Assembly (NCBI GenBank): GCA_026389715.1
Contig: JAPLHK010000094.1
Span: 21,129-55,169 of the forward strand
Direction: 5' to 3'
From: Chloroflexota bacterium
GTDB lineage: Bacteria > Chloroflexota > Dehalococcoidia > GIF9 > UBA5629
Length of the DNA: 34,041 bases
Made by a program: the position numbers and the translations under genes. A model generated the notes under the pieces. The model searched no databases. It was not told the DNA's origin and saw only the letters and a list, made by a program, of their open reading frames with translations. Positions 15,574 to 34,041 of the stretch are shown piece by piece (the first letter of the stretch is position 1; the number at the start of each line of letters is the position of its first letter).

Positions 15574-15605
15574 AGCCGCCGCCTGCCAGTCAGCAGGCGG
15601 CGGCT
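15574..15605. terminator. Intergenic hairpin (terminator or mRNA-stabilising)
   Basis: 13-bp perfect stem AGCCGCCGCCTGC/GCAGGCGGCGGCT with a 6-nt loop and no clear U-tract. Confidence 0.5.
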
Positions 15606-15642
15606 ACTTGATTCAGTCAGCCTTTGAGATCTTATGCAATTA

Positions 15643-17369: not shown

Positions 17370-17408
17370 GCAACAACCTCCAAGCGATTTTATTTTACGA
17401 TGGAATCG

Positions 17409-17449
17409 ATTATACCATACTGCCCCCGGCCAATCAGGACCGGGGGCAG
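17409..17449 (-). promoter_or_regulatory. Hairpin followed by an extended -10 element upstream of ligase copy 3
   Basis: Stem CTGCCCCCGG (17420-17429) / CCGGGGGCAG (17440-17449); minus strand TGGTATAAT at 17417-17409. Confidence 0.5.
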
Positions 17450-17465
17450 CTTACTACCGGTTATC

Positions 17466-19157: not shown

Positions 19158-19220
19158 GTTAAAACCTCCTAATGATTTGATTTTATCGTCAAGCATTATA
19201 CGCCTAACTAACCCATTGGC

Positions 19221-20927
19221 TCACGGTTTGGCAGCCGCCTTTTGCTTAGCCAGCTCTTCCTCTACAAGCACCCGTTTCAATATTTTACCCACCAGGGTCT
19301 TGGGTAATTCCGCCCTGAATTCAACATGCTTGGGCACCTTGTAGGCCGTCAGCTTCTCTCTGCAATGCAACTGAATTTCCTCGGCGGTAGCCGTTTCCCC
19401 CTGGCGCAGCACCACCCAGGCCTTGACTGCCTCGACCTGGTATGGATCAGGTATTCCTGCCACTCCAACCTCGGAAACCTTGGGATGCATGCTTATTACC
19501 TCTTCAACTTCCCTCGGCCAGACCTGGAAGCCGCCGGGCTTGATCAGCTCCTTTTTACGTGAGGTGATAAACAGGCAACCCTCATCATTCAGGTAGCCGA
19601 CATCCCCTGTATGCAGCCAGCCGCTGCGTATCATATCGGCGGTGGCCTCAGGCCTGTTCCAGTAGCCCTGCATCATCTGCGGGCACTGAGCAATTATCTC
19701 GCCCTCCTGGCCGGCAGGCATATCCTTCTCACCGGTTTCAACATCAACGATACGCAGTATAACATCCGGCAGAGGCACCCCAGCCGAACCCGGGGTCCAT
19801 TTACCCTCCACCGGTCCCAGCGTGATGGCAGCTGTAACCTCCGTCATACCGTACCCCTCAATAAGCTTGCCGCCAGTCAGTTCCTCAAAGCGCCGCTTGG
19901 TTTCGGGCAGCAATGGGGCCGCTGAGGCCACGCAAAGCTTCATCGATTTAAAATCGACTTTGCCCGCCTTTACCGCCGGGTGCTCCAGCAGTGCAATAAA
20001 AAGCGTCGGCACGGCCGGGAAGTAAGCCGGCCTGACGGTCTTGATTGTCTTTACCAGGTCATCACGGTCGCGCGGGTTGGGCACCACGGCCAGCGGGTTG
20101 TGCCCCATGATAGAAGTGCCCATCACGCCGGCAAAGCCGTAAACATGGAATAGCGGCATGATCATCATCACCACATCATCCCACTCGGTCAATACACTAT
20201 CGTTCCACACCTTGAGCTGCCAGGCCTCGGCTATCAGGCATTTGTGCGTGAGGATAACGCCCTTGGGCACGCCCGTAGTGCCGCCGCTGAAAAGCAGCAA
20301 CGCCACGTCGCCCGGCAACGGCTTATTGACGGGCGCGGCATGCCCGGCATGCTTGAGCATAAGGTCGGCTAAGTAAACATCATTCTGTGTAAGCTTTATG
20401 CGGTGACCTTCTTTTTTCTCCTTTAGCAATGTGAACATCAAGGCCAGGAAGGACGGCAGGTATTCCTTGATATTGACAGCTATCACCAGGCGCAGGCTGG
20501 TGCGCTCCTGTATCTTCTTCACCGTGGCATAGAAGGGTGTCAGCACCACCGCCACCTCCGCGCTGCATTCTTTCAACACATGTTCCAGCTCATACTCAGT
20601 GTACACGGGGTTGAGCGGCACGGGGATGGCTCCCGCTTTCCAGGCGCCGAACGACGCGATGAAACCCTGAGGGCAATTGGGCAGGAGGATGGCTACACGG
20701 TCTCCTTTCTTCACGCCGTTAGCCTGCAGAGCTGCCGCGAATACATTAAATAGCCTGACCATTTCACCATAAGTAACTGTATTTCCCTTGAAGAACAGGA
20801 AAGGATGGCCGGGCTTCTGCTTTGCGGCATCTTCCACGACGTCTAAAAATGTCACTGCAGGATACGGTTCCAGGGTATGCGGAACCCCTTTATCGTAGCT
20901 TTTAAACCACGGGTAATCAATGGCCAT
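19221..20927 (-). CDS. Long-chain-fatty-acid--CoA ligase family protein (array copy 5)
   Basis: LFSGGTTGVPKG, YGMTE, TGDVG and PKTLVGK; GGAGG RBS. Confidence 0.9.
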   Translation of the reverse strand: MAIDYPWFKSYDKGVPHTLEPYPAVTFLDVVEDAAKQKPGHPFLFFKGNTVTYGEMVRLFNVFAAALQANGVKKGDRVAILLPNCPQGFIASFGAWKAGAIPVPLNPVYTEYELEHVLKECSAEVAVVLTPFYATVKKIQERTSLRLVIAVNIKEYLPSFLALMFTLLKEKKEGHRIKLTQNDVYLADLMLKHAGHAAPVNKPLPGDVALLLFSGGTTGVPKGVILTHKCLIAEAWQLKVWNDSVLTEWDDVVMMIMPLFHVYGFAGVMGTSIMGHNPLAVVPNPRDRDDLVKTIKTVRPAYFPAVPTLFIALLEHPAVKAGKVDFKSMKLCVASAAPLLPETKRRFEELTGGKLIEGYGMTEVTAAITLGPVEGKWTPGSAGVPLPDVILRIVDVETGEKDMPAGQEGEIIAQCPQMMQGYWNRPEATADMIRSGWLHTGDVGYLNDEGCLFITSRKKELIKPGGFQVWPREVEEVISMHPKVSEVGVAGIPDPYQVEAVKAWVVLRQGETATAEEIQLHCREKLTAYKVPKHVEFRAELPKTLVGKILKRVLVEEELAKQKAAAKP

Positions 20928-21002
20928 TATTCAGCCTCCCCAGATATTTTATAGTCATCAGCAATGGATATCAGTTTAATACCACCTTCAGTTAAACGCC
21001 GC

Positions 21003-22703
21003 TTACTTCTTATCGTCAGTATCCCCGGCCTTTTCCTCCTCAAGTAAAACACGCCTGAGTATTTTGCCTATCTGCGTCTTGGGCAGCGCGTCGCGGAACT
21101 CTATCCGGCGCGGTACCTTGTAGGCCGCCAGCTTGGCCTTGCAGTGCTCCTTCAATTCATCGGCGCTGCAGGTCATGCCTGCGTTTAAGACTACCCAGGC
21201 CTTTACGGATTCGCCCTGATACTGGTCGGGTACGCCGGCCACGCCTGCCTCCATGACAGCAGGATGCTCATGTAAAACTTCCTCGATCTCGCGCGGCCAA
21301 ACCTGGAACCCGCTGGTCTTGATGATCTCCTTCTTGCGGCTATGCAGGAAGAGGTTCCCATCTTCGTCCAAATAACCGATATCGCCTGAATACAGCCAGC
21401 CGTCCCGCATCATGTCCGCGGTTTCCTGCGGCTGGTTCCAGTATTCTTTCATCAGGTTGGGCGCCTGGAAGCATATCTCGCCAAGCTGACCGGGCTTCAT
21501 GCTGCCCCGGCCGGTCTCGGCATCGGCAATCCTTATCACCACATCCGGCAGCGGCATGCCGACCGAGCCTTCCTTGTTGGCGCCAATTACGGGGTTAACC
21601 GTAGCAGCCTGCATGCACTCGGTCATGGTGTAACCTTCCAGCAGCCTTCCGCCAGTCATACTTTCAAAGCGTTTCCTGGTCTCCGCCATCAGCGGGGCAG
21701 CGCCCACGATGCAGAGCTTCATGCTCTCCAGCGTGACCTTGCCCGATGTCACCAGCGGGTGGTTCATAATGCCGATGTAGAAAGTCGGCACGCCCGGCAT
21801 GAAGGTCGGCTTATATTTCTTTATGCTCTTGACCACGTCCGTGAGGTCGCGCGGGTTGGGTATAATGACACATGAGGAGTGGTTAACCATGGCTGTGCCC
21901 ATGGCGCCCACACAGCCAAATACGTGGAAAAGCGGCATGGTCAGCGCCACTTTATCTTCCCATTGCTCAAGCACCGGGCTCAGCCAGGCACAGATCTGCA
22001 TGGCCGTCATAACCAGCGCCTGGTGAGTCCCCACAGCTCCTTTAGGCGTCCCTGTCGTTCCCCCACTGAAGAGGATGACTGCCGGGTCCGAGGGTTTCAC
22101 CTCAATGGCCGGTCGCCTGGCATTCCTGTACTTCTTAAGTACATCCTGGAACCACGCGTCGCCATGTTTAAGGCCGATGCGGTAGCCCTCCTTTTTCTCC
22201 CTGGCCAGCGTGAAAAGCAAGCGCAGGGGCTGAGGCAGGTATTCCTTGATATTGGTGGCGATAACAAATTTGACCCTGGTCTTGCCCTGGATATTCTTAA
22301 CGGCGTTATAGAACGGGTTAAGGACGATCACCGCCCGGGCATCGACCTCGTTCAAAGCGTGTTCGATCTCATGTTCAGTGTAAAGCGGGTTGACCGGGAC
22401 GGCTATGGCGCCCGCTTTCCAGATTGCCTGGAAACCAAGTATCATCTGGGGACAATTGGGCAAAAGCATAGCCACACGTTCGCCTTTCTGCACGCCCATG
22501 GCAACCAGCGCAGTGGCCAGCGCATTGCTCTGGCGGATAAAGTCCGCATATAGCACTTTGGAACCCTTGAAATACAACATGGCGCGGTAGGGTTTAGCTT
22601 TGGCGGATTCATCGACGATCTCGATCATCGTCTTTTGCGGGTAAGGTTGAAGCGTCAGGGGCACGCCCTTATCGTAATTCTTCAACCACGGATAGTCCGT
22701 CAT
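21003..22703 (-). CDS. Long-chain-fatty-acid--CoA ligase family protein (array copy 6)
   Basis: LFSGGTTGTPKG, GYTMTE, SGDIG and PKTQIGK. Confidence 0.9.
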   Translation of the reverse strand: MTDYPWLKNYDKGVPLTLQPYPQKTMIEIVDESAKAKPYRAMLYFKGSKVLYADFIRQSNALATALVAMGVQKGERVAMLLPNCPQMILGFQAIWKAGAIAVPVNPLYTEHEIEHALNEVDARAVIVLNPFYNAVKNIQGKTRVKFVIATNIKEYLPQPLRLLFTLAREKKEGYRIGLKHGDAWFQDVLKKYRNARRPAIEVKPSDPAVILFSGGTTGTPKGAVGTHQALVMTAMQICAWLSPVLEQWEDKVALTMPLFHVFGCVGAMGTAMVNHSSCVIIPNPRDLTDVVKSIKKYKPTFMPGVPTFYIGIMNHPLVTSGKVTLESMKLCIVGAAPLMAETRKRFESMTGGRLLEGYTMTECMQAATVNPVIGANKEGSVGMPLPDVVIRIADAETGRGSMKPGQLGEICFQAPNLMKEYWNQPQETADMMRDGWLYSGDIGYLDEDGNLFLHSRKKEIIKTSGFQVWPREIEEVLHEHPAVMEAGVAGVPDQYQGESVKAWVVLNAGMTCSADELKEHCKAKLAAYKVPRRIEFRDALPKTQIGKILRRVLLEEEKAGDTDDKK

Positions 22704-22781
22704 TAGTCTGCTCGAGCCTGCTCAGGCAACACGGTATTGCGCCCGATTTTTGGGTATTTCAATCGTTGATTGATTGGTCAA

Positions 22782-22809
22782 ATTGTATCACAGTGACTCG
22801 TAAAGTCAA
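22782..22809 (-). promoter_or_regulatory. Putative sigma70 promoter at the head of the ligase array
   Basis: Minus strand reads TTGACT (22809-22804), 16-nt spacer, then TACAAT (22787-22782) preceded by TGn. Confidence 0.55.
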
Positions 22810-22835
22810 GTTGCCCTGCCACCGCGGTCACAGCT

Positions 22836-23903
22836 TCATTTTATTCGTAAATCACCCTGCCCCGTCAGAGCCTGCCGCCGCAGTTGCCCGCAGGCCGCCT
22901 CAATCCCCTCCCCGCGCTGCTCCCTCTGTGTCACAGTGATACCGGCCTCTTCCAGCACGCGGCGGAAGTTAGTCACGCGAAACGTTTCAGGCGGATAGAA
23001 ACCACTGCCGCTGACCTTATTAAACGGTATGAGGTTTACGTGGCAGTTCAACCCCTGCAACAGCACGGCCAGCTTGGCGGCATCGGCCTGCCCGTCGTTG
23101 ACCCCTTTCAACAAACAGTATTCGAAAGTTACGCGCCGCCCTGTTTCCCTGAAATAGTGCTTGCAGGCATCGGCTATCTCCTGGAGCGTGTAGCGCGTCA
23201 TGCCGGGCACCAGCTTCCTGCGCAGGGCATCATCGGCCGCGTGCAACGAGACCGCCAAAGTCAACTGCAGGTCCTCGCCGGCCAGCCTGTAAATGCCGGG
23301 CACATAGCCGATGGTGCTCACGGTGATGTTGCGCATGCCGATGGCTAACTCGCCGTTGATCAGGTGCACTGCCGCCAGCGTCGCGTCATAATTGAGGAGC
23401 GGTTCGCCCATGCCCATAAAGACCACGTGGCTGACCCTGCCGTCCGCTGCCAGCAGCTTCCCTTTTATAGCAGCCTCACCGACAGTCATCACCTGGTCAA
23501 CTATTTCCCCGGCCGACAGGTTGCGCTTAAACCCTCCCGTGCCGGTTGCGCAGAAAGCGCAGCCGATGGGACAGCCTACCTGGGTGGATACGCAGCAGGA
23601 GAAGCGGCCTGCATAGGGCATTCCCACCGTCTCCACCAGTTCCCCATAGACGGGTTGTAAGAGCAGCTTGAAGGTGCCGTCCTTTGACTTGCTGATCTTT
23701 TTTACCTTGGAGCGGCCTATCTGATAGCCCTCTTCCAGCTTCGCCTTGAAGGCAACAGGCAAAGTGGCCATCCCGCTTATCTCGCGGCAACCCTGCCGGT
23801 ATAGCCAGTCGGCGACCTGCTTACCGCGGAACTCCTTTTCACCCAGCTCTTTAGCCAGCAGCTTCAATTTAACTGTGGACATGCCCAGCAGTAGCTTTTT
23901 CAT
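22836..23903 (-). CDS. rlmN: 23S rRNA (adenine2503-C2)-methyltransferase RlmN
   Basis: CVSTQVGCPIGCAFC, MGMGEP, LAVSLHA, NLIPFN and AACGQL. I prefer the ATG at 23903 because the putative -10 element overlaps the TTG at 23924. Confidence 0.92.
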   Translation of the reverse strand: MKKLLLGMSTVKLKLLAKELGEKEFRGKQVADWLYRQGCREISGMATLPVAFKAKLEEGYQIGRSKVKKISKSKDGTFKLLLQPVYGELVETVGMPYAGRFSCCVSTQVGCPIGCAFCATGTGGFKRNLSAGEIVDQVMTVGEAAIKGKLLAADGRVSHVVFMGMGEPLLNYDATLAAVHLINGELAIGMRNITVSTIGYVPGIYRLAGEDLQLTLAVSLHAADDALRRKLVPGMTRYTLQEIADACKHYFRETGRRVTFEYCLLKGVNDGQADAAKLAVLLQGLNCHVNLIPFNKVSGSGFYPPETFRVTNFRRVLEEAGITVTQREQRGEGIEAACGQLRRQALTGQGDLRIK

Positions 23904-23923
23904 TTTCTTAGTTTCCCCGACCA

Positions 23924-23952
23924 ATTATGTATTAGTGGCGGGCAGACTGCAA
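23924..23952 (-). promoter_or_regulatory. Putative rlmN promoter
   Basis: Minus strand reads TTGCAG (23952-23947), 17-nt spacer, CATAAT (23929-23924). Confidence 0.5.
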
Positions 23953-23969
23953 GCATTAACACATTCGGT

Positions 23970-23998
23970 TTGACCGCCCTGTTTTTTAGGAGTAGCAT
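23970..23998 (+). promoter_or_regulatory. Putative sigma70 promoter divergent from rlmN
   Basis: TTGACC (23970-23975), 17-nt spacer, TAGCAT (23993-23998). Confidence 0.6.
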
Positions 23999-24043
23999 GA
24001 AATTGAGGGTAATAAACAAGACTAACCCTCGCGGAGGTGGTTA

Positions 24044-24121
24044 ATGGTCAAAAAACAGGCCATGTTAGTTGAATGGCACTTTCCTTGGTCACGCTCTCAC
24101 CTGCGCGAGGAGCAGAGGTAA
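24044..24121 (+). CDS. Possible 25-aa peptide MVKKQAMLVEWHFPWSRSHLREEQR
   Basis: GGAGGTG (24033-24039) precedes the ATG at 24044; TAA at 24119-24121. I recognise no homology. Confidence 0.25.
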   Translation: MVKKQAMLVEWHFPWSRSHLREEQR

Positions 24122-24265
24122 GCTCCCCGGGTGCAGGCATTGAGAGCAGGTAAAACTCCCGAGCTCTCCGGTACGTAGCAAAAGAGCTGCGGAATAAGGG
24201 ACATAGCAGATAAATCGGGCTTACCTGAATGGGAGAGTAGGGAGGAAAATGGATCCGAAAGATCT

Positions 24266-24300
24266 AAGGGGCTTCGCGGCGCGAAGCCCCTTTATTTATT
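24266..24300 (+). terminator. Rho-independent terminator oriented for a + strand transcript
   Basis: 12-bp perfect stem AAGGGGCTTCGC/GCGAAGCCCCTT with a GGC loop, followed by TATTTATT. It may also stop the convergent activase transcript. Confidence 0.75.
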
Positions 24301-24316
24301 CCGATTTCGCCGTCAT

Positions 24317-25273
24317 TTAATACCCGGCGGTGGCATCCAATCCTTTAGCCTTGAATATCCCGATTATCCCGCTCAGGCGCTCTTCAGTTAGAGGCGTGCG
24401 CCCGCTCAACTGGTAGGCCCTGCCCAGCGACTGGTACTTGGCCCTGCCCCACTCGTGGTAGCCCAGCAGTGATACTTTCTCGGCCTTCATGCCCTGCAGC
24501 CTTCCGGCCAATTCCTGCATATAACGGTCACTGTCGTTGTAGCCAGGGATGACGGGCACTCTTATCCAGATCCTGGACATATTGGCCGCCATTAACTTCT
24601 CCAAATTGGAGAGGATAAGCTTATTGTCGGTTCCGGTGCCGTCGCGGTGCTCCTCACTGTCGATATGCTTTACATCGAAAAGCACCAGGTCTGTATATGC
24701 CAGCGCTTTCTCCAATGTTTCCCAGGGTACCTGTCCGCAGGTGTCCAGCGCTGTTCTGAAACCGCGCTCTTTGAGATTGCGGAGTAACTCCAGGGCAAAA
24801 TCGGCCTGTAGCAAAGGTTCGCCGCCCGACAGTGTGACGCCTCCTCCCGAGTTGCGGTAGAAGAGTTCATCCTTTGAGCATTCCTCAATCACTTCATCCA
24901 CGGTCATCTGCCGGCCGGCCAGCTCAAGTACGTCCTCCCAGCAGGCTTCGACGCATTTCAGGCAGAGGTCACATTTAACCCTGTCTAAACGCAGACCGCT
25001 GGCAGCCAGGGATAGCGCGCCCGGCGCACATACCTTGATGCAGCGGCCGCAGCCATTGCAGCGGGTTTCCCTGACCATCAACTCCGCAAAGGTATTAATC
25101 GATTCCGGGTTTGAGCACCACTTACAGCGCAGGGGGCAACCCTTGAAAAAGACCGTGCTCCTGATGCCGGGCCCGTCATGTATGCTGTAGCGCTGGATAT
25201 TGAAGACCACGCCTTTATTACCGGCGCTGCCCTTCTCCCCGCTGCCTGCAGACTCTCTGGAGTCTAAAAGCAC
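24317..25273 (-). CDS. Glycyl-radical enzyme activating enzyme with a 2x[4Fe-4S] ferredoxin-like insert
   Basis: HDGPGIRS, CPLRCKWCSNPES, CNGCGRCIKVC, CDLCLKCVEAC and SGGEPL. The GTG start overlaps the GRE 3' end by 10 bp; the exact start is uncertain. Confidence 0.92.
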   Translation of the reverse strand: MLLDSRESAGSGEKGSAGNKGVVFNIQRYSIHDGPGIRSTVFFKGCPLRCKWCSNPESINTFAELMVRETRCNGCGRCIKVCAPGALSLAASGLRLDRVKCDLCLKCVEACWEDVLELAGRQMTVDEVIEECSKDELFYRNSGGGVTLSGGEPLLQADFALELLRNLKERGFRTALDTCGQVPWETLEKALAYTDLVLFDVKHIDSEEHRDGTGTDNKLILSNLEKLMAANMSRIWIRVPVIPGYNDSDRYMQELAGRLQGMKAEKVSLLGYHEWGRAKYQSLGRAYQLSGRTPLTEERLSGIIGIFKAKGLDATAGY

Positions 25274-27660
25274 TGCGGCGTCCTGGCTATTATCGAGTCC
25301 TGGATATTGCGGTCCAGGTCGATAAAGTAGGCAGCGAAGCCGGCCACCCTGACCATCAGTGTGGGGTACTTTTCAGGATGCTCCTGCGCATCCTCCAGCG
25401 TCTCCCTGTTTACAGTGGAGAACTGAATATGGTGTATGCCCATATCGGCAAATGTCTTAAGGTACTGCGCGAAGACCCCGGCATTATGCCCCACCAAAAA
25501 CTGCGGCATGAAGCTCTGGTTGAAGAGGTGGTTCCAGCTTATCAGCGGGTCCACCTTGGCCACGGAGCGCAGCACTGCGGTCGGACCCTTCTTGTCGCGC
25601 CCGGCCATGGGCGAGATAGTCCCATCGTTGAAGGGGTCGCCCAGCATCCGGCCGTCCGCGGTCGCGCCGCAGACCCTGCCAAAGCTCCACCAGGCAGTCG
25701 CAGCCGTCCCGTCAACATGCACCGAGGTGCCCCAGTTGGTCTTGCACTTAGCGGTCTCCTCCTCGATGCGTCGAGCTACGTCACGGGAGGTCAGATCGGC
25801 ATAATCGTCATCATTGCCAAACTTGGGAGCGCGCAGGCACATCTGCCTTATCTCCTCGAAGCCTTTCCAGTTGTTTTTGAGCGCATCCACGAGTTGCTTC
25901 ATGGTAACCTTCTTATCGTCGAAAACCACCTTTTTGACCGCGGTCAGCGAATCCGCCACAGTGTTGAGGCCGAAAAGCGTCACATCGCGATAATCGGGCA
26001 TATAGTTCCAATCTCGCACGTCCTGCGCCCTGCTGATGCAGTCGTCAATGACCGAGGACAGGAAGGGACGAGGCGCCCACTCTTTATAGAGGGCGTCGGC
26101 GATGTTGGCGATGCGCACCAGCCGGTGTATGACCAGCCGGTAGTTCTCCATGGTGGCATCGAAAAGTTCATCCATCGAGGTTATTTTCTCGGGATCAAGC
26201 ACCTTATTGCCCGCCTTCTTGTAGATAGCCAGCGGGTCGATGCCCAGCGCCTGGTTGAGACAGAGGGGAGCGGGCACGCCGCTAGCCCAGGCGGAAATAT
26301 GGCTGAAGTTCTTGCCCGGTATGGTGGGCACCATACAGTTATTGATGGAGTAGTTGCGCGCATCCTCGAGCGGGGTGCCCAGGTTGACCAGCCTCAACAC
26401 CACGACCTTGTCATTGAATATGGCCGGCTGTGGCATGCCTGACGCCAGGCATTCAATGGCCTTGTCCACCAGCTTCGGGGGTATGCCATCATGCCAGCGC
26501 AGGGCCAGCGGCGGGACGATGGCGCGCACGGTCATGGTAGCATCGAGTATGATAAAGCTCATCTCGTTGGTTACATCACTGCCTTTAGAATCGACGCCGC
26601 CGATCGTCACGGTCTGGAAACCCAGCGCGCCTCCGCCAAAGCCGGACCAGATAGGCGCATGCAAGAAGCCTGTCTCCTGAAATTTCACAAAGAGGAACTC
26701 CACCAGCTCCTGGGCAGATTCGCGGGTAGTTTTGCCGGCGGCCAAATCTTTCTCATAGAAGGGGTTGAAGACAACATCGAATCTTATACCGGAGCCTACC
26801 TGCGGCATCTCCAGGAAATTCACCACCAGATGGATGAACCAGTATGACTGGATCGCCTCGTGTAGTGTACGCGCGGGTTCCTCGGGCACGCGGTCGCAGA
26901 CATCAGCAATATTCTCGAGTTCCACCTTGCGCAGCACCTCTTTCTCGGATTTGGCCAGACTGCGCGCCAGTGCCGCATACCGCTTGGACCACCTGCTGAC
27001 GGCCTCCAGCGTGATGATAGCGCCCTGCAGGAAATCCTTCTTTTTTACGAAATCAATGCCGTTGATAGTCTCTGCCATATATTCTTCATCGAGCTTTTTG
27101 AGGCGCTCCCTGGCTTCCTCCAGGACGCCTTTCAGCCCGATGGACAGTATCTTATCGTAGTTGGGCGTGGCCGACTCCCAGTTGAATATCCAGAATTGCT
27201 CGGCAAGCTCCTTTGTCAGGTACTTCTTGGCCATGTGGTGAATGGAGCGGTCGCCCCAGTATTCACCTATCTCCTTGAGTTCCTTCCTGCCCTCATCGGT
27301 GAGCATGCTGGCGTAAACCTGGCCGGGGGCGGTTTCCCTGGCTATCCACTTCCAGGCAAGCTCGGGATAGAAGGGTACGGAATCGCTGTTGGACGCGTAG
27401 TTGCCCACGATCATTTCGTCCGGCCGGATATAAATTGTCATGTTATCGAGAAGGTGCGCCAGCGCCCGTGCGCGGCGCAGAGAAATGGGCTGCCCCTCGG
27501 TCTGTTTATAGGATTGGGTTACCAACCTAGCACGCTCCAGGTCCAGCGACCAGATAAAGCCCGGCCTGGTTGCCCTGGCATCAGCACTGAGCGCCTCAAG
27601 TGCCACCTGCTGCGCCTTGATAGGCGTCTTCACCATTAACTCCTGCGTTCTGGTTGTCAT
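25264..27660 (-). CDS. Glycyl radical enzyme of unknown function
   Basis: Gly loop MVRVAGFAAYF, Cys loop SINNCMVP, PKFGNDD and ATADGR; AGGAGG RBS; activase adjacent. Confidence 0.92.
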   Translation of the reverse strand: MTTRTQELMVKTPIKAQQVALEALSADARATRPGFIWSLDLERARLVTQSYKQTEGQPISLRRARALAHLLDNMTIYIRPDEMIVGNYASNSDSVPFYPELAWKWIARETAPGQVYASMLTDEGRKELKEIGEYWGDRSIHHMAKKYLTKELAEQFWIFNWESATPNYDKILSIGLKGVLEEARERLKKLDEEYMAETINGIDFVKKKDFLQGAIITLEAVSRWSKRYAALARSLAKSEKEVLRKVELENIADVCDRVPEEPARTLHEAIQSYWFIHLVVNFLEMPQVGSGIRFDVVFNPFYEKDLAAGKTTRESAQELVEFLFVKFQETGFLHAPIWSGFGGGALGFQTVTIGGVDSKGSDVTNEMSFIILDATMTVRAIVPPLALRWHDGIPPKLVDKAIECLASGMPQPAIFNDKVVVLRLVNLGTPLEDARNYSINNCMVPTIPGKNFSHISAWASGVPAPLCLNQALGIDPLAIYKKAGNKVLDPEKITSMDELFDATMENYRLVIHRLVRIANIADALYKEWAPRPFLSSVIDDCISRAQDVRDWNYMPDYRDVTLFGLNTVADSLTAVKKVVFDDKKVTMKQLVDALKNNWKGFEEIRQMCLRAPKFGNDDDYADLTSRDVARRIEEETAKCKTNWGTSVHVDGTAATAWWSFGRVCGATADGRMLGDPFNDGTISPMAGRDKKGPTAVLRSVAKVDPLISWNHLFNQSFMPQFLVGHNAGVFAQYLKTFADMGIHHIQFSTVNRETLEDAQEHPEKYPTLMVRVAGFAAYFIDLDRNIQDSIIARTPQCF

Positions 27661-27698
27661 ATTAAGCCTCCTAAATTAGACCTCTATCATTAACTGTA

Positions 27699-30344
27699 TC
27701 ACACCCTGATGGACAGGTCATCCAGCGGGTAGCTCATACAGGGATGGATATAGCCGAATTTTTGGTCGGCCTGGCGGTAATGCACGCGGGCCGGGGCAAA
27801 GACCTTACCAGATATCAGCCTGGTGCGGCAGGCCGTGCATTCTCCCGACCGGCATACGGCGGGGACCACGATGCCGGCACGTTCAAGCGAGTTCATCAGC
27901 GGCTCACCGGCTTTAGCCTTGACCTTCTTCCCGCTCCTAACCTCGGTAATCACGAACTCCTTTGAGGCCTGTATACCCGGCCAGGCCGGGTCTTTAGTAA
28001 CATCCTGAGGCGGACCGTAGGCCTCCTGTTTCCGGCGCCTGGCCGGTACGCCCAGCTTGACCAACGCTGCTCCGCAAAGCTCGTACATCAGAGCCGGGCC
28101 GCAGGTAAACACCGTCTTGCCCCTGAGATCTCCTGACAGCGAGAATATGACCTTGTCATCAAGTAAGCCTGTGGCTCCTTTCCAGCCGGATGGAGGCTCA
28201 CTTATCACGTAATCAACTTTTATATTCTTGTGCTTGCCTGCAAGCTGCTGTAATTCTTTATCAAAGATTATGTCGTCCGGCGTGCGGCTGCCGTAAATGA
28301 GGTGGATATTCAATTTGGACTTTTTCTCCACCATTTCACGGATGATGGACATGAAAGGCGCGGCGCCGCTGCCGCCGGCCAAAAAGACGAGGTCGGTAGA
28401 ATCGATCAGAGGCTCATAGTAGAAATAGCCGCTGGGGCCAGTCGATTCGAAGCTGTCGCCCACCTTGACCTTATCGAGCAGGTAGGACGATACAAATCCA
28501 CCCCCTACCCTGCGTACTGTAATATCATAGTAAGACTTGCCGGGCGCCGAGGAGATGCTATAGGGACGCGAGGTCTTCACGCCACCGATATCCACAAAAA
28601 GGTTGATGTATTGCCCGGCGCGGAACCATGGTAGCTTGCCGTCTTTTGATTCCAGCCTGAAGGTCTTGGCGCTGGCCGTTTCTTTAATGATCTCTTTAAC
28701 TTTCAGCTTCAGCCTACGCGGGTGAATCGCGGCAACAGCCTTTTCCTGCGGGGTAATGGTGTCCTTGAGCTCCCCTGGCTTTACCTTCTGCTTTTCCAGT
28801 GTATCCTTGATGCCGGGTATCACCTCGGTATCCCAGGAGCCCTTCTCCATGTCCTTCAGCACCTCGCGTGAAGCCATGGCACCTGTGGCAATGCAGGTCT
28901 CAAAGCCGCCGCCGATATTCACCCAAGCGTTGGCAAAGTAAAGACCTTCCAACGGGCCCCTCATGGGCATATGCAGAAAACCCGTGCCGGTAAAGTTCTC
29001 GTCGAACCCGATGATGCTGCCGCGCGGGTTTCCCGTGTAGCGCATGTTGGTCAGCGGCGTGGCTATCTCGATCACCTCGATATGGTCCCTCAAGCCGGGG
29101 GCCGCCTTTTCCGCCAACTTAAGTGAATTTTGGGCCATCCTATTCTTGGCCTCAACATATTCCGATGGGGATAGTTTCAACCAGTGATCGTCGTAGGCAA
29201 TCTGGGTAACTACCACCGAGGCCGTTCCTTTGGGCGATACGGTTGGGTCGACCACATTGTATGCCACCACTAGGTTGAAATCCGGCCCGACATGGACCGA
29301 GTGAAGCCCCTGCTCGTACTGCATGTCCAGGTCATAACTTGTGTTAACAAAATTCTCGTGGACGTTCAGCCCGACCTCCTGGCACGCGCAATCCAGGCCC
29401 AGGTATATGTTGAAGGTGCTGGCGCCGCCGGTCCAGCCACCCAAACGGTTGAGGTACCAGCCCGGCATGTTATCCCGGCCGATCAGTTCAAGCGCAGTGG
29501 TGACGGGGTTGGCGCTGCAGACGACGTGCTGAGTGGCTATCTCGGTGCCGTCCTCGGTCAGCACACCGCGCACTTTGCCGTCTTTAACTAAAATCTTCTT
29601 TGCGCCGTTGCTGAACCAGGCCTCGCCTCCGTAGGATTCCATGGTAGCTATGAACGCCTGCGAAAGGTTCTGCGAGGTCCCCCTGACATGGGCCGCACCG
29701 AACCTGATGTAGCTGACCAGCGTGATGGCATACATAAGGAATGCTACCTTTGAAGGGGGCTGTGCCAAATAGCCCCAGAGCTGGCCTATGACGGCGCGTG
29801 CCTTCTCATCTGAGACCATGGGGTTGAGGACCTCGGAGAGCGTCTTACCGAAGTAGGCCATCAGTTCGGGGTACTCGGAAGAGTTCTGCATCACGGCTTT
29901 CATACCTACCCGCTGGGCTTTCATGGCCTGGCGGGCAAATTCGAAAATGGTCTGCGTAAACTTCTTTATGCCGTCAGCCTCCCTGGGAAACTGGTTGCAG
30001 AGAGCGTCCTCGTAGTTCTGCCTGCCAATGGGCACCTCAATAGTAAAGTCAGGGAAGATGCTGCGGTAAAAGTCTGGGATATGCAGGATGTCTACCCTGT
30101 CCGAAACGCCGCTATCATGCAATATCTTCCAGACGGACCCCTTGTCTGTTTCGGTCCCATACCCGGAAAGCTGGTGCAGGGCTATCTCGAATTCGAAACG
30201 ACCCCTGAGGAACGAGGTGGCATAGCCGCCCGGCACGTTATGTTTCTCCAGGACAACCACCTTTTTACCGGCCTTGGCCAGGTAGGTTGCCGCGGATAAT
30301 CCACCCAATCCCGCCCCTACGACAACGGCATCAAAGTCCTTCAC
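27699..30344 (-). CDS. Phytoene desaturase/retinol saturase-like (COG1233) FAD oxidoreductase fused to FNR-type reductase and [2Fe-2S] ferredoxin domains
   Basis: The N-part has VVGAGLGG, EKHNVPGG and ATPLT. The C-part has RAGQY, RPYSISS, AGGSG, CGP and CRSGECTAC...C. GTG start with GGAGG RBS. Confidence 0.85.
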   Translation of the reverse strand: MKDFDAVVVGAGLGGLSAATYLAKAGKKVVVLEKHNVPGGYATSFLRGRFEFEIALHQLSGYGTETDKGSVWKILHDSGVSDRVDILHIPDFYRSIFPDFTIEVPIGRQNYEDALCNQFPREADGIKKFTQTIFEFARQAMKAQRVGMKAVMQNSSEYPELMAYFGKTLSEVLNPMVSDEKARAVIGQLWGYLAQPPSKVAFLMYAITLVSYIRFGAAHVRGTSQNLSQAFIATMESYGGEAWFSNGAKKILVKDGKVRGVLTEDGTEIATQHVVCSANPVTTALELIGRDNMPGWYLNRLGGWTGGASTFNIYLGLDCACQEVGLNVHENFVNTSYDLDMQYEQGLHSVHVGPDFNLVVAYNVVDPTVSPKGTASVVVTQIAYDDHWLKLSPSEYVEAKNRMAQNSLKLAEKAAPGLRDHIEVIEIATPLTNMRYTGNPRGSIIGFDENFTGTGFLHMPMRGPLEGLYFANAWVNIGGGFETCIATGAMASREVLKDMEKGSWDTEVIPGIKDTLEKQKVKPGELKDTITPQEKAVAAIHPRRLKLKVKEIIKETASAKTFRLESKDGKLPWFRAGQYINLFVDIGGVKTSRPYSISSAPGKSYYDITVRRVGGGFVSSYLLDKVKVGDSFESTGPSGYFYYEPLIDSTDLVFLAGGSGAAPFMSIIREMVEKKSKLNIHLIYGSRTPDDIIFDKELQQLAGKHKNIKVDYVISEPPSGWKGATGLLDDKVIFSLSGDLRGKTVFTCGPALMYELCGAALVKLGVPARRRKQEAYGPPQDVTKDPAWPGIQASKEFVITEVRSGKKVKAKAGEPLMNSLERAGIVVPAVCRSGECTACRTRLISGKVFAPARVHYRQADQKFGYIHPCMSYPLDDLSIRV

Positions 30345-30402
30345 CTTTTGTAACCTCCTTATTCATGTGTAAGATATTTATTATATCCAAATTGCGACGC
30401 AC

Positions 30403-30438
30403 AGATTGCCGCGGCCACTGCGGCGGCCTCGCAATGAC
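30403..30438. repeat. Half copy of the REP-like element seen at 13512
   Basis: The reverse complement GTCATTGCGAGGCCGCCGCAGTGGCCGCGGCAATCT matches the first arm GTCATTGCGAGG...GCCGCGGCAATCT of the 13512 element. Confidence 0.7.
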
Positions 30439-30445
30439 AGTATGC

Positions 30446-31186
30446 TCAGCGTCCCTTGAACTGCGGTAAGCGTTTATTGCGGAAAGAGTCCAGCCCTTCC
30501 CGGAAATCCTCGCTGCCCATCAGGAACTTCTGCGCATAAGTCTCGAAGTAAAGCTGCTGTTCAAGGGTATTGATCAGGCCGTTTTGCACAGCGCGTTTAA
30601 TTTGCTTGAGCGCCAGCGGCGGGCCCTGTACTATCCTGTTGGCCAGCGCTTCGGCCTCCTCCATCAGCTTCTCATGCGGCACAACCCGGTTTACCATGCC
30701 GATACGCTCGGCTTCGCGTGCATCGATGGAATCGCCGGTGTACATGTATTCGTAGCAGCGCCCGGTGCCCAGCAGCCGCGGCATCAGGAAGGTACATCCG
30801 CAGTCCGGTATCAGACCCCGCATCACGAAAGCCAGGTTAAAGATCGCTCTTTCGGAGGCGATGCGTATATCAGAGAGCAGGGCGAGGGATACACCACCAC
30901 CCGCCGCCACACCGTTGACGGCAGCGATGACCTCAAGTGTTTCCTGGAGCTTTCCCTCCTCCGCTGCCTGGTTAAAGAGCACTATATCGGCACCGGTGCA
31001 GAAGCCCTTGCCCGCGCCGGTGATGATAAGGGCTCGAACCTCATCATCCTCCTGTATCTCGCGAAAGATACGCGGCATCAGTTCGTTGCTTATCTCCGCC
31101 GTCAGGGCGTTCAGCCTTTGCGGCCGGTTCATGGTCAGGATGGCAACGCGGTTTTTTTTCTCAAGTATCAGGCCTTCATATTCCAT
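30446..31186 (-). CDS. Enoyl-CoA hydratase/isomerase family protein (PaaG-like), apparently with an internal deletion
   Basis: NRPQRLNAL, FCTGAD, AAVNGVAAGGG, GLIPDCG and SEDFREG; the KP normally found before VIAAVNG is missing. Confidence 0.8.
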   Translation of the reverse strand: MEYEGLILEKKNRVAILTMNRPQRLNALTAEISNELMPRIFREIQEDDEVRALIITGAGKGFCTGADIVLFNQAAEEGKLQETLEVIAAVNGVAAGGGVSLALLSDIRIASERAIFNLAFVMRGLIPDCGCTFLMPRLLGTGRCYEYMYTGDSIDAREAERIGMVNRVVPHEKLMEEAEALANRIVQGPPLALKQIKRAVQNGLINTLEQQLYFETYAQKFLMGSEDFREGLDSFRNKRLPQFKGR

Positions 31187-31242
31187 ACGGTTATCCTTGT
31201 CATATTACTCAATCTGACATGACCGGGGTTGGTTGCCCGCCC

Positions 31243-32385
31243 TCAGGCCTTTATGGTCAACCCGGCGGGGAACTTCTCCCCCAGTATCTTTACGGCTCCG
31301 CCGATAATGTCGTCCATGACTTCCTGTGTGCTCCTGACCTTCTTGATCAGCCCGGTAACCTGTCCGGCGAACATGGGGAAGTACTCCGTCTCGCCCTTTT
31401 CCATCATGCCCTGCACCAGATCTGCCATCAGCATGCTCTGCAATGGCATGGGCAACGTCTTAAGCCCCGATTTCTCCCAGGCCTCATCAAGTTTGTTCTT
31501 AAAAGCGCGCGTGGTCTTGCCGCTGTAAATCCGGGTTATCTGTTCCGCTTCCTCGTCCGAATCGATCAGCTTGCGGTAATAGGCGTCAATAGTCGCCCTA
31601 TTTAGCATGCCGAGCTCGACGAAGTCCACGAAGCATTCATGGGTGGCCAGAAAAGCGGTCCCGCACCAGGCGCCGATAGCCCCCAGTGCCAGCGCAGCTA
31701 CCAGGCCACGTCCGTCAGCTATCCCGCCGGCAGCCACCACAGGGGTGGGGGCAACGGCGTCGACAACCTGCGGGACAAGCGCGAAGGTGCCGATCCTGCC
31801 TGTATGTCCGCCAGCGTCATGTCCCTGGGCAATGATGATATCCGCACCCATCTTTTTAAGCTTGACCGAGTTGCGCACGTTGCCGCACAAAGACACGATC
31901 TTGATGCCGGCCTCGTGCGCCTCGGGGATGAGCCAGTCCGGTGTGCCGAGGCCGAGTGCAAAGAAAGGCACCTTCTCCTCTTTGACCACCTGGAACTGGC
32001 TGCGGCCGAACTCCTCAGAGATGGGCCATTCTTTCATACGGGCACCCTCCACCCCGAAATCCCTGGCCATCTTTTGAACAAATGCGGTATGCTCGGGAGG
32101 TATATATTCTTTTATCTTGCCCAGGTCGAAGTCTTTCGGAATGGCCGCGGGGAGCAGGATATCCACGCCGAAAGGCTTGTCTGTCAGTTCACGCGTTTTG
32201 CGTATCCAGGACCGCAATTCGTCGGGCCACAGGAAAGTGGCGCCCAGCATCCCCAGTCCTCCGGCATTGGAGACGGCTGCCGTGAGCGTGTAGCCACCTG
32301 CCGTGCCCATGCCGGCCAGCATCACCGGATACTCGGCACCGAGCATATCGCACAGCGCGGTGCGGAAGACAGGGCGTTTATTCAT
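31243..32385 (-). CDS. Nitronate monooxygenase / FabK-like FMN-dependent oxidoreductase
   Basis: LAGMG, AAVSNAGGLG, DAGGHTG, AAGGIADGRG and GTAFL. Confidence 0.85.
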   Translation of the reverse strand: MNKRPVFRTALCDMLGAEYPVMLAGMGTAGGYTLTAAVSNAGGLGMLGATFLWPDELRSWIRKTRELTDKPFGVDILLPAAIPKDFDLGKIKEYIPPEHTAFVQKMARDFGVEGARMKEWPISEEFGRSQFQVVKEEKVPFFALGLGTPDWLIPEAHEAGIKIVSLCGNVRNSVKLKKMGADIIIAQGHDAGGHTGRIGTFALVPQVVDAVAPTPVVAAGGIADGRGLVAALALGAIGAWCGTAFLATHECFVDFVELGMLNRATIDAYYRKLIDSDEEAEQITRIYSGKTTRAFKNKLDEAWEKSGLKTLPMPLQSMLMADLVQGMMEKGETEYFPMFAGQVTGLIKKVRSTQEVMDDIIGGAVKILGEKFPAGLTIKA

Positions 32386-32400
32386 TTCTCTCCTTAATGG

Positions 32401-34041
32401 CTATTTGAACTTACCGCTTAATATGGTTCTGATCTCCCTCTTGAGAATCTTCCCCACTGCGCTGGTGGGTAGCTGGTCGAAGAATTCTATGGTCTTGGGC
32501 ACCTTGTAGGGGGCAACCTTGCCCTTAAGGTACTCGATTATCCTGGCTTTCTCGGCGTCGCTTTTCTCTATGCCGGGCTTGAGAATGATGGCCGAGGCAA
32601 CTATCTCGGTCCCCGGCCTGTCGGGATTATGTATTCCCACAGTGGCACACATATCCACGTCCGGGTGCTCGCAGATTACATCATCCAATTCGCGGGTAAA
32701 CACCTTGAACCCCGAGACGTTGACCATGTCCTTTATCCGATCCACAATGGTTACGAACCCCTCATCATCCATCTTGCCCACGTCGCCCGTGTAGAACCAG
32801 CCGTTCCGCAGCGCGTTGGCCGTCTCGTCCGGTTTTCTGAAATAGCCCTTGGTGAATACCTGCGGCCCCCTCACAGCTATCTCGCCCGGCTCATTGAATG
32901 GCACTGGTTCACCGGTTGCGGGGTCAATGATTTTTATATCGGTATCGGGGAAGGGTATACCCACCGCACCCGGTATCTTCTTGCCATAGCGGGGATTGGC
33001 CGTTATGATCGGGCTGGTCTCGGTCAGGCCGTACACTTCCACCAGCTTGTTCTCACCTACAATTTTCTCAAAATCCTTGATATATTCGGGAGGGAACGGG
33101 GCGGCGCCGCTGGCGAAATACTGGACGTCGCTGAAATCATAGGCTTTGAAGCCCGGCTGTTTGATCAGCTCCAGGTAAACCGTCGGGACGTTGCCGATAA
33201 TACTCGGCCGGTGCTTCTTCATGGCCTTGATGATAAATTGCTGATCGCGCGGGTTGGGCACCGCGACCTGTGTGTTGGCCTTGGCAAATAGCGCCATGCA
33301 TATCACAAGTCCGGCAATATGAAATAGCGGGAACGCCGTCATACCGACCAACTCACCCATCGGGGCATCTAACCAGGTGTTTATCTGGAACATCTGTGAG
33401 GTCATGTTGCGGTGCGTCAGTTCCGCGCCCTTGGGCAGGCCGGTGGTACCGCCGGTGTACTGCATCACGCAGGTATCATCCATACTTACTTTTTCCGATA
33501 CAGGGTCGGCGGGCAGGCTCTTCATGACCTGCTTGAAATCGTATATTTCTATTCCCGGTATAGGCAGCACCTTGCCTGTGGGGATCTTCTTCAGCATTTT
33601 CCCCATGGTGGCCAGCACCGGGGAGAGGTAATCGGCGATGCCCGTAAATACAATGGCCTTAAGCTCCGTGCCTCCGATGCTCTTGATAATTCGCGGGTAA
33701 AGCGCATCGAGGGTCACCAGCACCTTGGCACCGGAATCCTTGAGCTGGTGGTTGAGCTCGTCAGCAGTGAGCAGCGGGCTGACGCCGGTGAGCACACAGC
33801 CTGCCTTCTGTATGCCGACCAGGCCGATGTAATAAGCAGGTAGATTGGGAAGGTTTATACCTACTGTATCGCCTTTCTTCAGACCGATCTTCTTGAGCAG
33901 GTTGGCGAAGCGGTTGGACATCTCGTCCATCTGCTTGAAAGTGAAGGGGGTGCCCATGTAGTACAGCGCCACGCGGTTGGGAAATCCCTTAAAGGCCGGC
34001 TCAATAGCCTCCCAGAACGTTTTATCTGGGTATTGCAGGTT
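32401..34041 (-). CDS. Long-chain-fatty-acid--CoA ligase (FadD-like), 5'-truncated by the window
   Basis: QYTGGTTGLPKG, YGLTETSP, IVDRIKDM and PTSAVGK. The frame stays open past 33972 to the window end (NLQYPDKTFWEA...). Confidence 0.9.
   Translation of the reverse strand, partial: NLQYPDKTFWEAIEPAFKGFPNRVALYYMGTPFTFKQMDEMSNRFANLLKKIGLKKGDTVGINLPNLPAYYIGLVGIQKAGCVLTGVSPLLTADELNHQLKDSGAKVLVTLDALYPRIIKSIGGTELKAIVFTGIADYLSPVLATMGKMLKKIPTGKVLPIPGIEIYDFKQVMKSLPADPVSEKVSMDDTCVMQYTGGTTGLPKGAELTHRNMTSQMFQINTWLDAPMGELVGMTAFPLFHIAGLVICMALFAKANTQVAVPNPRDQQFIIKAMKKHRPSIIGNVPTVYLELIKQPGFKAYDFSDVQYFASGAAPFPPEYIKDFEKIVGENKLVEVYGLTETSPIITANPRYGKKIPGAVGIPFPDTDIKIIDPATGEPVPFNEPGEIAVRGPQVFTKGYFRKPDETANALRNGWFYTGDVGKMDDEGFVTIVDRIKDMVNVSGFKVFTRELDDVICEHPDVDMCATVGIHNPDRPGTEIVASAIILKPGIEKSDAEKARIIEYLKGKVAPYKVPKTIEFFDQLPTSAVGKILKREIRTILSGKFK

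Follow-up and report, generated by a model that had tools for sequence, protein, structure and literature searches.

A group of six co-oriented genes was analyzed at the end of a 34,041-nucleotide stretch of DNA from a Chloroflexota bacterium (GenBank assembly GCA_026389715.1, contig JAPLHK010000094.1; the whole stretch is referred to here as the window). The genes encode an acyl-CoA ligase, an NMO/FabK-like flavoprotein, a crotonase, a fusion protein in which a COG1233 flavin domain is joined to an FNR-type reductase and a 2Fe-2S ferredoxin, a glycyl radical enzyme (GRE) and the GRE-activating enzyme (activase). The comparative data establish that the six genes are one conserved unit and not an accident of a lipid-gene-rich genome. 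Among the GRE clades sampled, a COG1233 protein, an FNR-type reductase and a 2Fe-2S ferredoxin accompany this clade alone. Judged by its predicted active-site motifs, the GRE clade is established as uncharacterized and as lying outside the eliminase/isomerase and formate-lyase classes. With moderate confidence, this operon of an uncultured freshwater Dehalococcoidia lineage is interpreted as a module by which a hydrophobic carboxylic acid is broken down anaerobically; the acid is probably isoprenoid-like, with unsaturated bonds and/or methyl branches. What is new here is a variant inside the known GRE superfamily, with concrete partner enzymes.

Gene neighborhoods were compared across 108 loci, 29 from species-representative genomes and 79 from metagenomes, which were scored by tblastn with the window proteins; 7 of the 108 were set aside because no GRE match covered at least 40% of the query. 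A COG1233 homologue was present in 22/34 loci with a GRE at least 70% identical to that of the window and in 0/67 loci whose GRE was less than 70% identical. An earlier note on the window had proposed to judge the cluster by recurrent linkage of the GRE clade with the fusion; linkage with COG1233, fused or split, does recur. Nine of the 12 close-GRE loci without a COG1233 homologue are too short on the relevant side (L009, L010, L011, L012, L020, L046, L049, L054 and L056), and L009 shows the FNR-ferredoxin end of a fusion. No COG1233 homologue was found in the other three, L024 and L025, which have 10-kb flanks on both sides, and L047, which has just 174 nt upstream of the GRE. Instead, L047:3612-12187 and L024:13864-20735 share an activase, an aminotransferase, unknown proteins, DUF3604 and an MFS transporter; both come from high-GC bins, one of them labelled delta proteobacterium. 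L023 and L025, also of high GC, look frameshifted.

The linkage of GRE and COG1233 occurs in at least four gene orders, with the partners fused or split. In type I, comprising the window and its close relatives, the order is ligase-NMO-crotonase-fusion-GRE-activase. Type II loci (L018, L045, L050) show MarR / GRE-activase-solute-binding protein-two unknowns-crotonase-fusion-SCP2-SCP2; transcribed divergently, on the other strand, are a crotonase, NMO and a FadH-like OYE/Pyr_redox_2 reductase. Type III (L053) reads TetR-COG1233-GRE-ligase, followed by DUF1329/LolA-like-COG1233-separate FNR/ferredoxin-GntR/FadR; L052, with COG1233-GRE, is grouped here. L051 has GRE-activase-COG1233. The TetR regulator in relatives is YsiA-type. 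The NMO-like gene is retained in type I loci, and a divergent copy of it is retained in type II loci. In three type I loci (L015, L019, L021) the block is kept with a crotonase and a fusion that are just 53-62% identical to those of the window, and in L015 and L021 the six-gene block is conserved while the upstream flanks differ.

The composition of the window genome (G000; a bin of 2.02 Mb in 120 contigs) bears on the same point. It holds 22 ligase-like and 16-18 crotonase-like places, compared with 2 for COG1233, 3 for GRE and 4 for NMO. Because COG1233, GRE and NMO places are this few in the genome, and because the GRE-COG1233 linkage recurs in other gene orders, the clustering goes beyond chance. 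The general β-oxidation enzymes of the genome are represented by 18 matches for acyl-CoA dehydrogenase, 12 of the thiolase type and 4 for 3-hydroxyacyl-CoA dehydrogenase. Among 401 sampled Dehalococcoidia genomes, a GRE orthologue is present in 2 (G000 and G013; the next best match has 50% identity) and the full-length fusion in 3. Loci with a GRE up to 99% identical lie in bins labelled Dehalococcoidia or Chloroflexota, and the clade as a whole ranges over Dehalococcoidia, Desulfobacterota and Asgard archaea. Two features of single loci were also seen. On a Chloroflexi contig (L020:2926-8168), four tandem LivK-type solute-binding protein genes (411-414 aa) follow the GRE and activase. The stand-alone type III COG1233 proteins encoded directly upstream of the GRE (L053:8198-9961 and L052:16-1743) carry an N-terminal extension of ~80 residues, within which a hydrophobic stretch ends in a lipobox-like L-A-A-C or L-T-A-C, and may be exported lipoproteins.

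The GRE has a PFL-like barrel, a Gly-radical domain, a Cys aligned with C433 of glycerol dehydratase (GDH) and an adjacent activase, and so belongs to the PFL-like superfamily. Its catalytic Cys442 is encoded at 26335-26337 and its radical Gly774 at 25339-25341 (minus strand). The Cys loop N-N-C-M-V-P and G774 within R-V-A-G are conserved in 21/21 aligned clade members (59-96% identity), among them proteins labelled Smithellaceae, Thermodesulfobacteriota, Lokiarchaeia, Hermodarchaeota and Jordarchaeaceae. R771, V772 and G774 (21/21) show no variation across the clade, nor do Cys442 and Met443; conservation of Val444 reaches at least 90%. The Cys-loop pattern is kept in Chloroflexota, Desulfobacterota and Asgard members alike. 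Against Clostridium butyricum GDH (34.7% identity by tblastn), the aligned residues are C433 to C442, E435 to V444, H164 to S163, H281 to Q287, S282 to V288, Y339 to F348, H446 to H454 and D447 to I455. By this alignment, the putative substrate positions of the GRE are mostly non-polar.

These residues decide against two classes. Assignment as a 1,2-eliminase or isomerase of the CXE type was rejected, as the loop reads C-M-V with Val444 at the position of the Glu; in the part of a 2026 review used here, the eliminases and isomerases (GDH, PD, CutC, HypD, IslA, HpsG, HplG, YbiW and PflD) retain the CXE motif (Imrich et al.). Assignment as a formate lyase (PFL, TdcE) was likewise rejected. These enzymes have two adjacent Cys on the Cys loop, as cited in the portion of PMC8163825 consulted, and an Asn precedes C442 here, so there is no double Cys. 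In the same portion, archaeal sequences are said to have a Gly in front of the Cys, where this clade has Asn.

Profile comparisons place the GRE under every NCBIfam equivalog cut-off, and also under that of the PFL2/glycerol-dehydratase subfamily model (537.8 bits vs 678). Scores against the eliminase/isomerase equivalogs and their cut-offs were 495/1000 for HpsG, 478/1100 for HypD, 439/1050 for CutC, 427/1109 for PRK09983 and 421/1000 for HpfG; those for the decarboxylases were 399/1100 bits for IAD and 296/1150 bits for HPAD, and formate lyase (TIGR01255) gave 118.7 bits against a cut-off of 994. Among PDB proteins, glycerol dehydratase 1r8w ranked highest (464 bits), followed by propanediol dehydratase, CutC, HypD, BSS (356), MASS (345.5), AAD (343) and PFL2 (338). 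When the region of the Cys loop was searched alone, AAD (7e7l), whose loop reads C-V-L, was among the four best PDB matches, and neither BSS nor MASS was among the five alignments listed for that search. Genes for small β or γ subunits beside the GRE were not found in the unit, where gaps of at most 101 nt leave no room for them. The activase has a CxxxCxxC in its translation and stays under the cut-off of the substrate-specific activase models.

A tree of 110 GRE rows was built with FastTree (SH-like supports), with GDH, YbiW, CutC and HypD as named references. These were taken from a plasmid collection, in which no BSS was seen among the 40 of 162 records listed. The COG1233-linked loci all fall within one 27-row clade with a support of 100; inside it, types I-III, the L047/L024 pair and L049 are not resolved from each other. 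The four references lie outside an 85-row superclade (support 100) that contains the window GRE, and other clades of this superclade likewise adjoin CoA ligases and crotonases, among them the sister clade and the tandem arrays described below. The window genome encodes two more GREs, at C15:16125-18380 (34% identical; 32% by tblastn) and C22:2619-5609 (29%), the latter adjoining its own activase. A sister clade (~50% identical; L033, L035, L037, L060, L062 and L063, for example L033:9044-12490) is common in Dehalococcoidia. Its GRE is followed by a 304-aa Amidohydro_2 protein, often with a crotonase nearby, usually without an adjacent activase and in housekeeping surroundings. Four tandem GRE paralogues, 41-46% identical to the window GRE, were seen in L040:9961-19839, L064:5689-15567 and L069:9595-20240. 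The arrays of L040 and L064 are identical or nearly so and are copies of one array; L069 begins with an additional partial GRE and ends with a ligase, and its one activase follows the first of the tandem genes.

The fusion protein carries its cofactor motifs in the translation (GxGxxG, RPYS, GGSGAAP, CGP and C-x4-C-x2-C…C). In the segment F-E-[IV]-[AS]-L-H of its family, F52, E53, L56 and H57 are invariant in 16/16 aligned homologues. The COG1233 domain was rejected as CrtISO, crtI or CrtD (scores of 129 vs 587, 121 vs 238 and 117 vs 550), and in the PDB it matched CrtI with just 52.7 bits. For the reductase part, the best NCBIfam matches are GbcB, PaaE and BenC-type reductases and the best PDB matches are cytochrome b5 reductase and benzoate dioxygenase reductase. 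Donation of electrons to the activase by the FNR-ferredoxin module is a side possibility. The 881-aa architecture defines a large family of at least 120 clusters, all of those listed being at least 55% identical and nearly all 880-883 aa long; where named, their labels are Dehalococcoidia, Deltaproteobacteria and Actinomycetota, and the product names are generic.

Members of the fusion family also occur in other surroundings. In G182, the genes next to the fusion encode a nitroreductase, an α/β-hydrolase and GlcD/GlcF-like proteins; G013 has a second copy, next to a ligase, and G226 has the fusion in split form. In G722, a split COG1233 and FNR/ferredoxin lie amid TetR, an MFE-2-like set (MaoC, SDR and SCP2), thiolase, ligase, hydrolase, crotonase and a family-III CoA-transferase. 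Gene sets of this kind are typical for the β-oxidation of 2-methyl-branched or steroid-side-chain acyl-CoAs, and the G722 locus may serve such a purpose.

The three remaining enzymes are of the kinds that make and process CoA thioesters. The best NCBIfam matches of the ligase are long-chain-fatty-acid-CoA ligases, every one under its cut-off. Its orthologues are ~566 aa long, and the window, which reaches to the end of its contig, stops inside the gene; the ligase is thus truncated by the contig end. The earlier note's terms FabK-like and PaaG-type hold as nearest similarities, and both proteins score under the curated cut-offs. The sole NCBIfam match of the NMO-like protein is FabK (TIGR03151), in two stretches; with 224.5 bits vs a cut-off of 453.1, it was rejected as a FabK equivalog. 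The crotonase was rejected as a PaaG equivalog (TIGR02280, 205.8 bits vs 345.15), its match being split by a 20-residue deletion. This deletion is in frame (60 nt) and the segment is present in 5/5 aligned orthologues, by both protein and DNA alignments; one orthologue with the undeleted form is 94% identical. It lies between two oxyanion-hole segments (window 30880-30990, near 30932). CTKGAG-like words flank the missing stretch on either side. In RNA run X12, a contig continues at 30932 with letters absent from the window, and is read as the undeleted form of the gene.

The positions of the genes and neighboring elements are collected in Table 1. The description in the earlier note of six closely spaced, co-oriented genes of these families agrees with the open reading frame (ORF) positions and with the Pfam and NCBIfam profile matches.

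Table 1. The six-gene unit and associated elements, with positions in the window
Feature	Positions	Strand	Evidence
FadD-type AMP-dependent acyl-CoA ligase, first gene of unit, 5' end lost	32401-34041	-	PF00501 290 bits, PF13193
NMO/FabK-like FMN flavoprotein, putative enoyl-thioester reductase	31243-32385	-	PF03060 214.9 bits
Crotonase-fold enoyl-CoA hydratase/isomerase	30446-31186	-	PF00378 187.9 bits
Crotonase-fusion spacer, 101 nt, with TATAAT (30385-30380), GC-rich inverted repeat and AAGGAGG ribosome-binding site	30345-30445	-	sequence reading
COG1233-FNR-2Fe2S fusion, whole gene, 881 aa	27699-30344	-	Pfam
Fusion, N-terminal COG1233 (phytoene-dehydrogenase-like) flavin domain, residues 1 to ~503	28836-30344	-	PF01593, PF13450
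Fusion, C-terminal FNR-type reductase (545-766) and plant-type 2Fe-2S ferredoxin (803-873)	27699-28712	-	PF00970, PF00175, PF00111
Glycyl radical enzyme, 798 aa	25264-27660	-	PF02901 543 bits, PF01228 93 bits
GRE-activating radical SAM enzyme, two extra ferredoxin-like clusters	24317-25273	-	TIGR02494 352 bits vs cut-off 174
GC-rich hairpin, 12 pairs, directly after activase stop	24266-24292	called on +, side of T-rich tail	terminator scan, sequence reading

From the ligase to the GRE, the intergenic gaps are 15, 56, 101 and 38 nt, the last being the fusion-GRE distance that the earlier note had given. Its overlap of GRE and activase depends on the start codon. The overlap is 10 nt if GTG 25273 is the start of the activase and becomes a 53-nt gap with the alternative GTG 25210; family alignments, like many orthologues, start at the latter. 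The TATAAT in the crotonase-fusion spacer is present as described, and the sub-operon of the last three genes that had been drawn from it is not borne out: no -35/-10 pair was found at this site in the scan of the spacer, and the promoter scan of the region gave 7 sites vs 7.0 ± 2.9 in shuffles. The hairpin after the activase is the likely end of the transcription unit, and a spacer of 392 nt separates the activase stop from rlmN. Upstream of the ligase, close relatives carry ArsR, a DsbD_2-type membrane protein and a methyltransferase, with an SBF-family transporter in one locus; these are read as an unrelated ars-type group. Since a terminator follows the activase and unrelated ars-type genes lie upstream in relatives, the unit is taken to run from the ligase through the activase. 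The ligase array noted beyond rlmN exists as six tandem AMP-ligase ORFs (11778-22703); lying behind the terminator and rlmN, it is a separate unit, and the operon ligase shares 33-37% identity with its members. One of the tandem ligases, at 15813-17369 (518 aa), has no AMP-binding_C match, and a 154-aa ORF at 15643-16107 overlaps it in another frame. As tblastn of 15643-17369 covers just 72-75% of a ligase, this may be a frameshifted copy. The opposite end of the window (1-11650) encodes a GatZ-like/PfkB fusion, a PfkB kinase, KDPG aldolase, a LarA-like protein, an MBL-fold protein, Zn-ADH, NAD-epimerase, an MFS transporter, an IlvD/Edd dehydratase and an RraA-like aldolase, and looks like a separate cluster for sugar-acid catabolism.

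Sequencing runs were also compared with the 9.7-kb stretch that holds the unit. Near-complete copies (79-97% of sampled words) were found in ten DNA runs from three studies, freshwater where labelled, one of which may be the window's own source. Four metatranscriptome runs from one study contained 30-49% of its words, and their contigs over 20000-34041 touch 25-28/30 bins. Mismatch-free pieces from the RNA libraries bridge GRE and activase (25118-25886) and NMO and ligase (31982-32568 and 31987-32437). Among the pieces listed (32/173), none spans the crotonase-fusion or the fusion-GRE spacer, which is uninformative either way. The RNA contigs fit expression of the unit and are no proof of co-transcription, because they show neither strand nor level and such libraries can hold DNA. 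In three RNA-library runs, contigs end or depart from the window at 30397-30401, within the GC-rich inverted repeat, with different letters each time, and in two RNA runs they do so where the crotonase starts (31185). The fusion-GRE spacer is ~460 nt in L003, L015 and L021, compared with 38 nt in the window. The spacers look hypervariable between strains.

The catabolic interpretation suggests the following sequence of events. An acid would be taken up, possibly by way of solute-binding proteins such as those encoded in relatives, and activated by the ligase. In the acid or its CoA ester, the thiyl radical of the GRE would then take a hydrogen from a carbon that is allylic or unactivated. What follows might be a decarboxylation, an addition to an alkene or a rearrangement, all of them reactions of a non-eliminase kind. 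Connected to NAD(P)H by the FNR and ferredoxin modules of the same protein, the COG1233 domain could reduce, isomerize or allylically oxidize an isolated C=C bond. The NMO-like enoyl reductase and the crotonase would finally pass the product into the general β-oxidation of the genome. We infer the order of these steps, as we do the radical C-H chemistry and the substrate classes. A hydrophobic acid is suggested as the substrate because of the FadD-type ligase, the SCP2, solute-binding and LolA/DUF1329-like proteins and the MarR/TetR/FadR regulators. Its unsaturated or methyl-branched character is suggested by the three kinds of C=C-handling enzymes, the context in G722 and the analogy with the Ctm system described below. 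The lipid/terpenoid activation reading of the earlier note thus survives as a conserved unit with an uncharacterized GRE, CoA-thioester and C=C-handling partners and β-oxidation genes in the genome, while its radical chemistry and substrates keep the standing just given.

Several observations weigh against this interpretation. Genes for an acyl-CoA dehydrogenase, a thiolase and any alcohol or aldehyde dehydrogenase are missing from the cluster, so that the pathway it would encode is incomplete. To our knowledge, no GRE acts on a CoA ester except PFL, for which CoA is a co-substrate. The long loci L047, L024 and L025 have GREs 71-72% identical to that of the window and no COG1233 homologue; as L047 and L024 sit among other genes, the clade is not bound to one context. 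The fusion, in turn, occurs without a GRE in G182, G226 and G722 and as the second copy in G013. The crotonase of the window has the 20-residue deletion, and the gene is missing from L007. Most type I loci are close relatives, so that their count overstates independence, which rests on the gene orders and not on the count. The tree comes from FastTree only, with four named references and without BSS, MASS, PAD, IAD, AAD, IslA or PFL2. DNA can also end up in RNA-library contigs, and these extend over the neighboring rlmN and ligase genes too.

Four other explanations were weighed. According to one, the GRE is a stand-alone hydroalkylase resembling the X-succinate synthases, which joins a hydrocarbon, be it an alkene, a terpene or an alkane, through an allylic or alkyl C-H to fumarate or a different alkene, after which the ligase activates the product for β-oxidation. 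The missing CXE motif and the mostly non-polar putative substrate positions would suit such an enzyme, activation of a terpene by a GRE has a precedent in limonenylsuccinate synthase, and a ligase adjoins the GRE in types I and III. Hermodarchaeota GRE homologues have been named Ass/Bss, in the part of PMC8163825 seen, and Asgard proteins 59-63% identical belong to this clade; the naming there, however, was based on 29-33% identity. The α-β-γ architecture is so far conserved in the benzylic/allylic succinate synthases according to the relevant part of the 2026 review (Imrich et al.), and the unit leaves no room for β or γ genes. BSS and MASS also score below glycerol dehydratase, a bbs-type CoA-transferase, an acyl-CoA dehydrogenase and a thiolase are absent from the unit, and the solute-binding proteins of type II suggest a soluble acid and not a hydrocarbon. 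We consider this explanation unlikely. A similarly low probability is assigned to the GRE being a subunit-free decarboxylase of the AAD/PAD type that acts on an arylacetate-like or β,γ-unsaturated acid, with the neighbors processing the product or a related acid. AAD also lacks the CXE motif and was among the best matches to the Cys-loop region, and the partners of the sister clade are a crotonase and Amidohydro_2 proteins, a family to which non-oxidative decarboxylases belong. The full-length match to AAD is no closer than those to other classes, however, and the HPAD and IAD scores lie far under their cut-offs (296 vs 1150 and 399 vs 1100 bits). We know of no arylacetate decarboxylase locus with a CoA ligase, a crotonase and enoyl reductases. 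As far as the 2026 review was available, AAD needs no small subunit, which would fit a GRE standing alone, the four decarboxylases described use free arylacetates, which would not fit the present neighbors, and the decarboxylase class has no common active site (Imrich et al.).

The unit might instead be biosynthetic and modify the cell's own lipids by saturation, branching or cross-linking. FabK as the sole NCBIfam match of the NMO-like protein, the carotenoid desaturases and isomerases among COG1233 enzymes and the housekeeping gene rlmN next to the unit would all agree with such a role. It is nevertheless judged very unlikely, as relatives carry solute-binding proteins (four in tandem in L020), MarR/TetR/FadR regulators and LolA/DUF1329-like uptake proteins, a CoA ligase is present while acyl carrier protein, synthase and glycerolipid genes are absent from the unit, and a GRE orthologue in just 2/401 genomes of the class would be odd for a core lipid trait. 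The earlier note had allowed that the clustering could be incidental, in which case the GRE and activase pair would act on an unrelated small molecule. A 2-Mb genome with so many ligase-like and crotonase-like places makes chance neighbors conceivable, and the close GREs of L047 and L024 do lie in a non-lipid context. Yet COG1233 linkage in 22/34 vs 0/67 loci, confined to one clade with a support of 100 and found in at least four gene orders, just 2 COG1233 and 3 GRE places in the genome, and a block retained while its flanks change leave this explanation with hardly any probability; incidental clustering is already contradicted by the comparative data.

The preferred reading of a catabolic module for a hydrophobic acid can be taken further, at a rather low probability: the GRE clade could be a further functional class for hydrophobic isoprenoid-type acids or CoA esters, working with a self-sufficient Ctm-like flavoenzyme. 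If so, strict anaerobes would have an O2-free means to pass the unsaturated and methyl-branched sites at which β-oxidation stalls. One conceivable route would decarboxylate a 3-methyl-branched enoic acid, with flavin-dependent allylic oxidation then yielding the next lower 2-methyl acid, and would be an anaerobic counterpart of α-oxidation. A GRE working on acyl-CoA or isoprenoid acids would be a new reaction type in radical enzymology and would open a new route of anaerobic carbon cycling. Dehalococcoidia abound in anoxic sediments and lake water, yet little is understood of the way in which they break down recalcitrant lipids and terpenoid residues. Partner enzymes are now defined for the clade, its motif signature excludes three known classes, its members come from three phyla, Asgard archaea included, and its sequence is found in metatranscriptome libraries. 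A first context is gained for the widespread 881-aa COG1233-FNR-ferredoxin family. Names such as alkyl- or benzylsuccinate synthase should be given to such GREs with caution where the similarity is weak.

The literature offers partial counterparts for the components of the unit. In line with the earlier note, literature searches, judged by title or abstract, found no published description of this GRE clade or of a pathway pairing a GRE with the fusion. In the part of the 2026 review consulted, entire GRE clades, and all archaeal PFL-like GREs, are without an assigned function (Imrich et al.); the words "acyl-CoA", "CoA ligase" and "Chloroflex" are absent from that review. The closest full-length match is GDH, with which the window GRE shares the PFL-like barrel, the Gly-radical domain, the position of the catalytic Cys and a two-extra-cluster activase. 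It differs from GDH in having Val for the Glu of CXE and Ser, Gln, Val, Phe and Ile for H164, H281, S282, Y339 and D447. The X-succinate synthases (BSS, MASS and limonenylsuccinate synthase) are likewise GREs without CXE, act on hydrophobic substrates including a terpene, and yield products that enter CoA-dependent β-oxidation; the window unit, in contrast, is without small-subunit or bbs-type genes, and their scores (356 and 345.5 bits) lie under those of the eliminases. AAD (7e7l) likewise has no Glu at Cys+2 of the Cys loop and is a GRE of one subunit. It differs in its full-length score of 343 bits, in acting on free arylacetates and, in the part of the 2026 review seen, in having no CoA-enzyme or COG1233 partner. 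As predicted from its residues and neighbors, the GRE resembles AAD and the succinate synthases solely in features that are missing.

For the fusion protein, the Ctm system provides a described analogue in unfused form. CtmAB (COG1233), CtmE (a 2Fe-2S ferredoxin) and CtmF (a reductase) are required for anaerobic limonene oxidation in Castellaniella defragrans, and a CoA ligase and ring cleavage come next, according to the sections of PMC4109377 consulted. With this analogue at hand, and with the 881-aa fusion being a widespread family that also occurs without a GRE, the fusion is not unprecedented in kind. Ctm differs from the window in being an α-β heterodimer with separate partners, as opposed to a single, fused COG1233 domain, and its pathway is without a GRE. 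Both systems combine a COG1233 flavoprotein, a 2Fe-2S ferredoxin and an NAD(P)H-type ferredoxin reductase, in Ctm for an O2-independent isoprenoid metabolism, with a CoA ligase and a hydratase downstream; in the window, all three modules are inside one 881-aa protein. In the related Δ24 steroid desaturase and in CtmAB, FMN is bound covalently to the His of G-F-L/R-X-N/S-T/L-H-A, as described in the part of PMC11061730 used. Set against this published description, the fusion is a partial match, with agreement at the F, L and H positions and at S in some homologues, and its H57 is the invariant counterpart of the covalent-flavin His.

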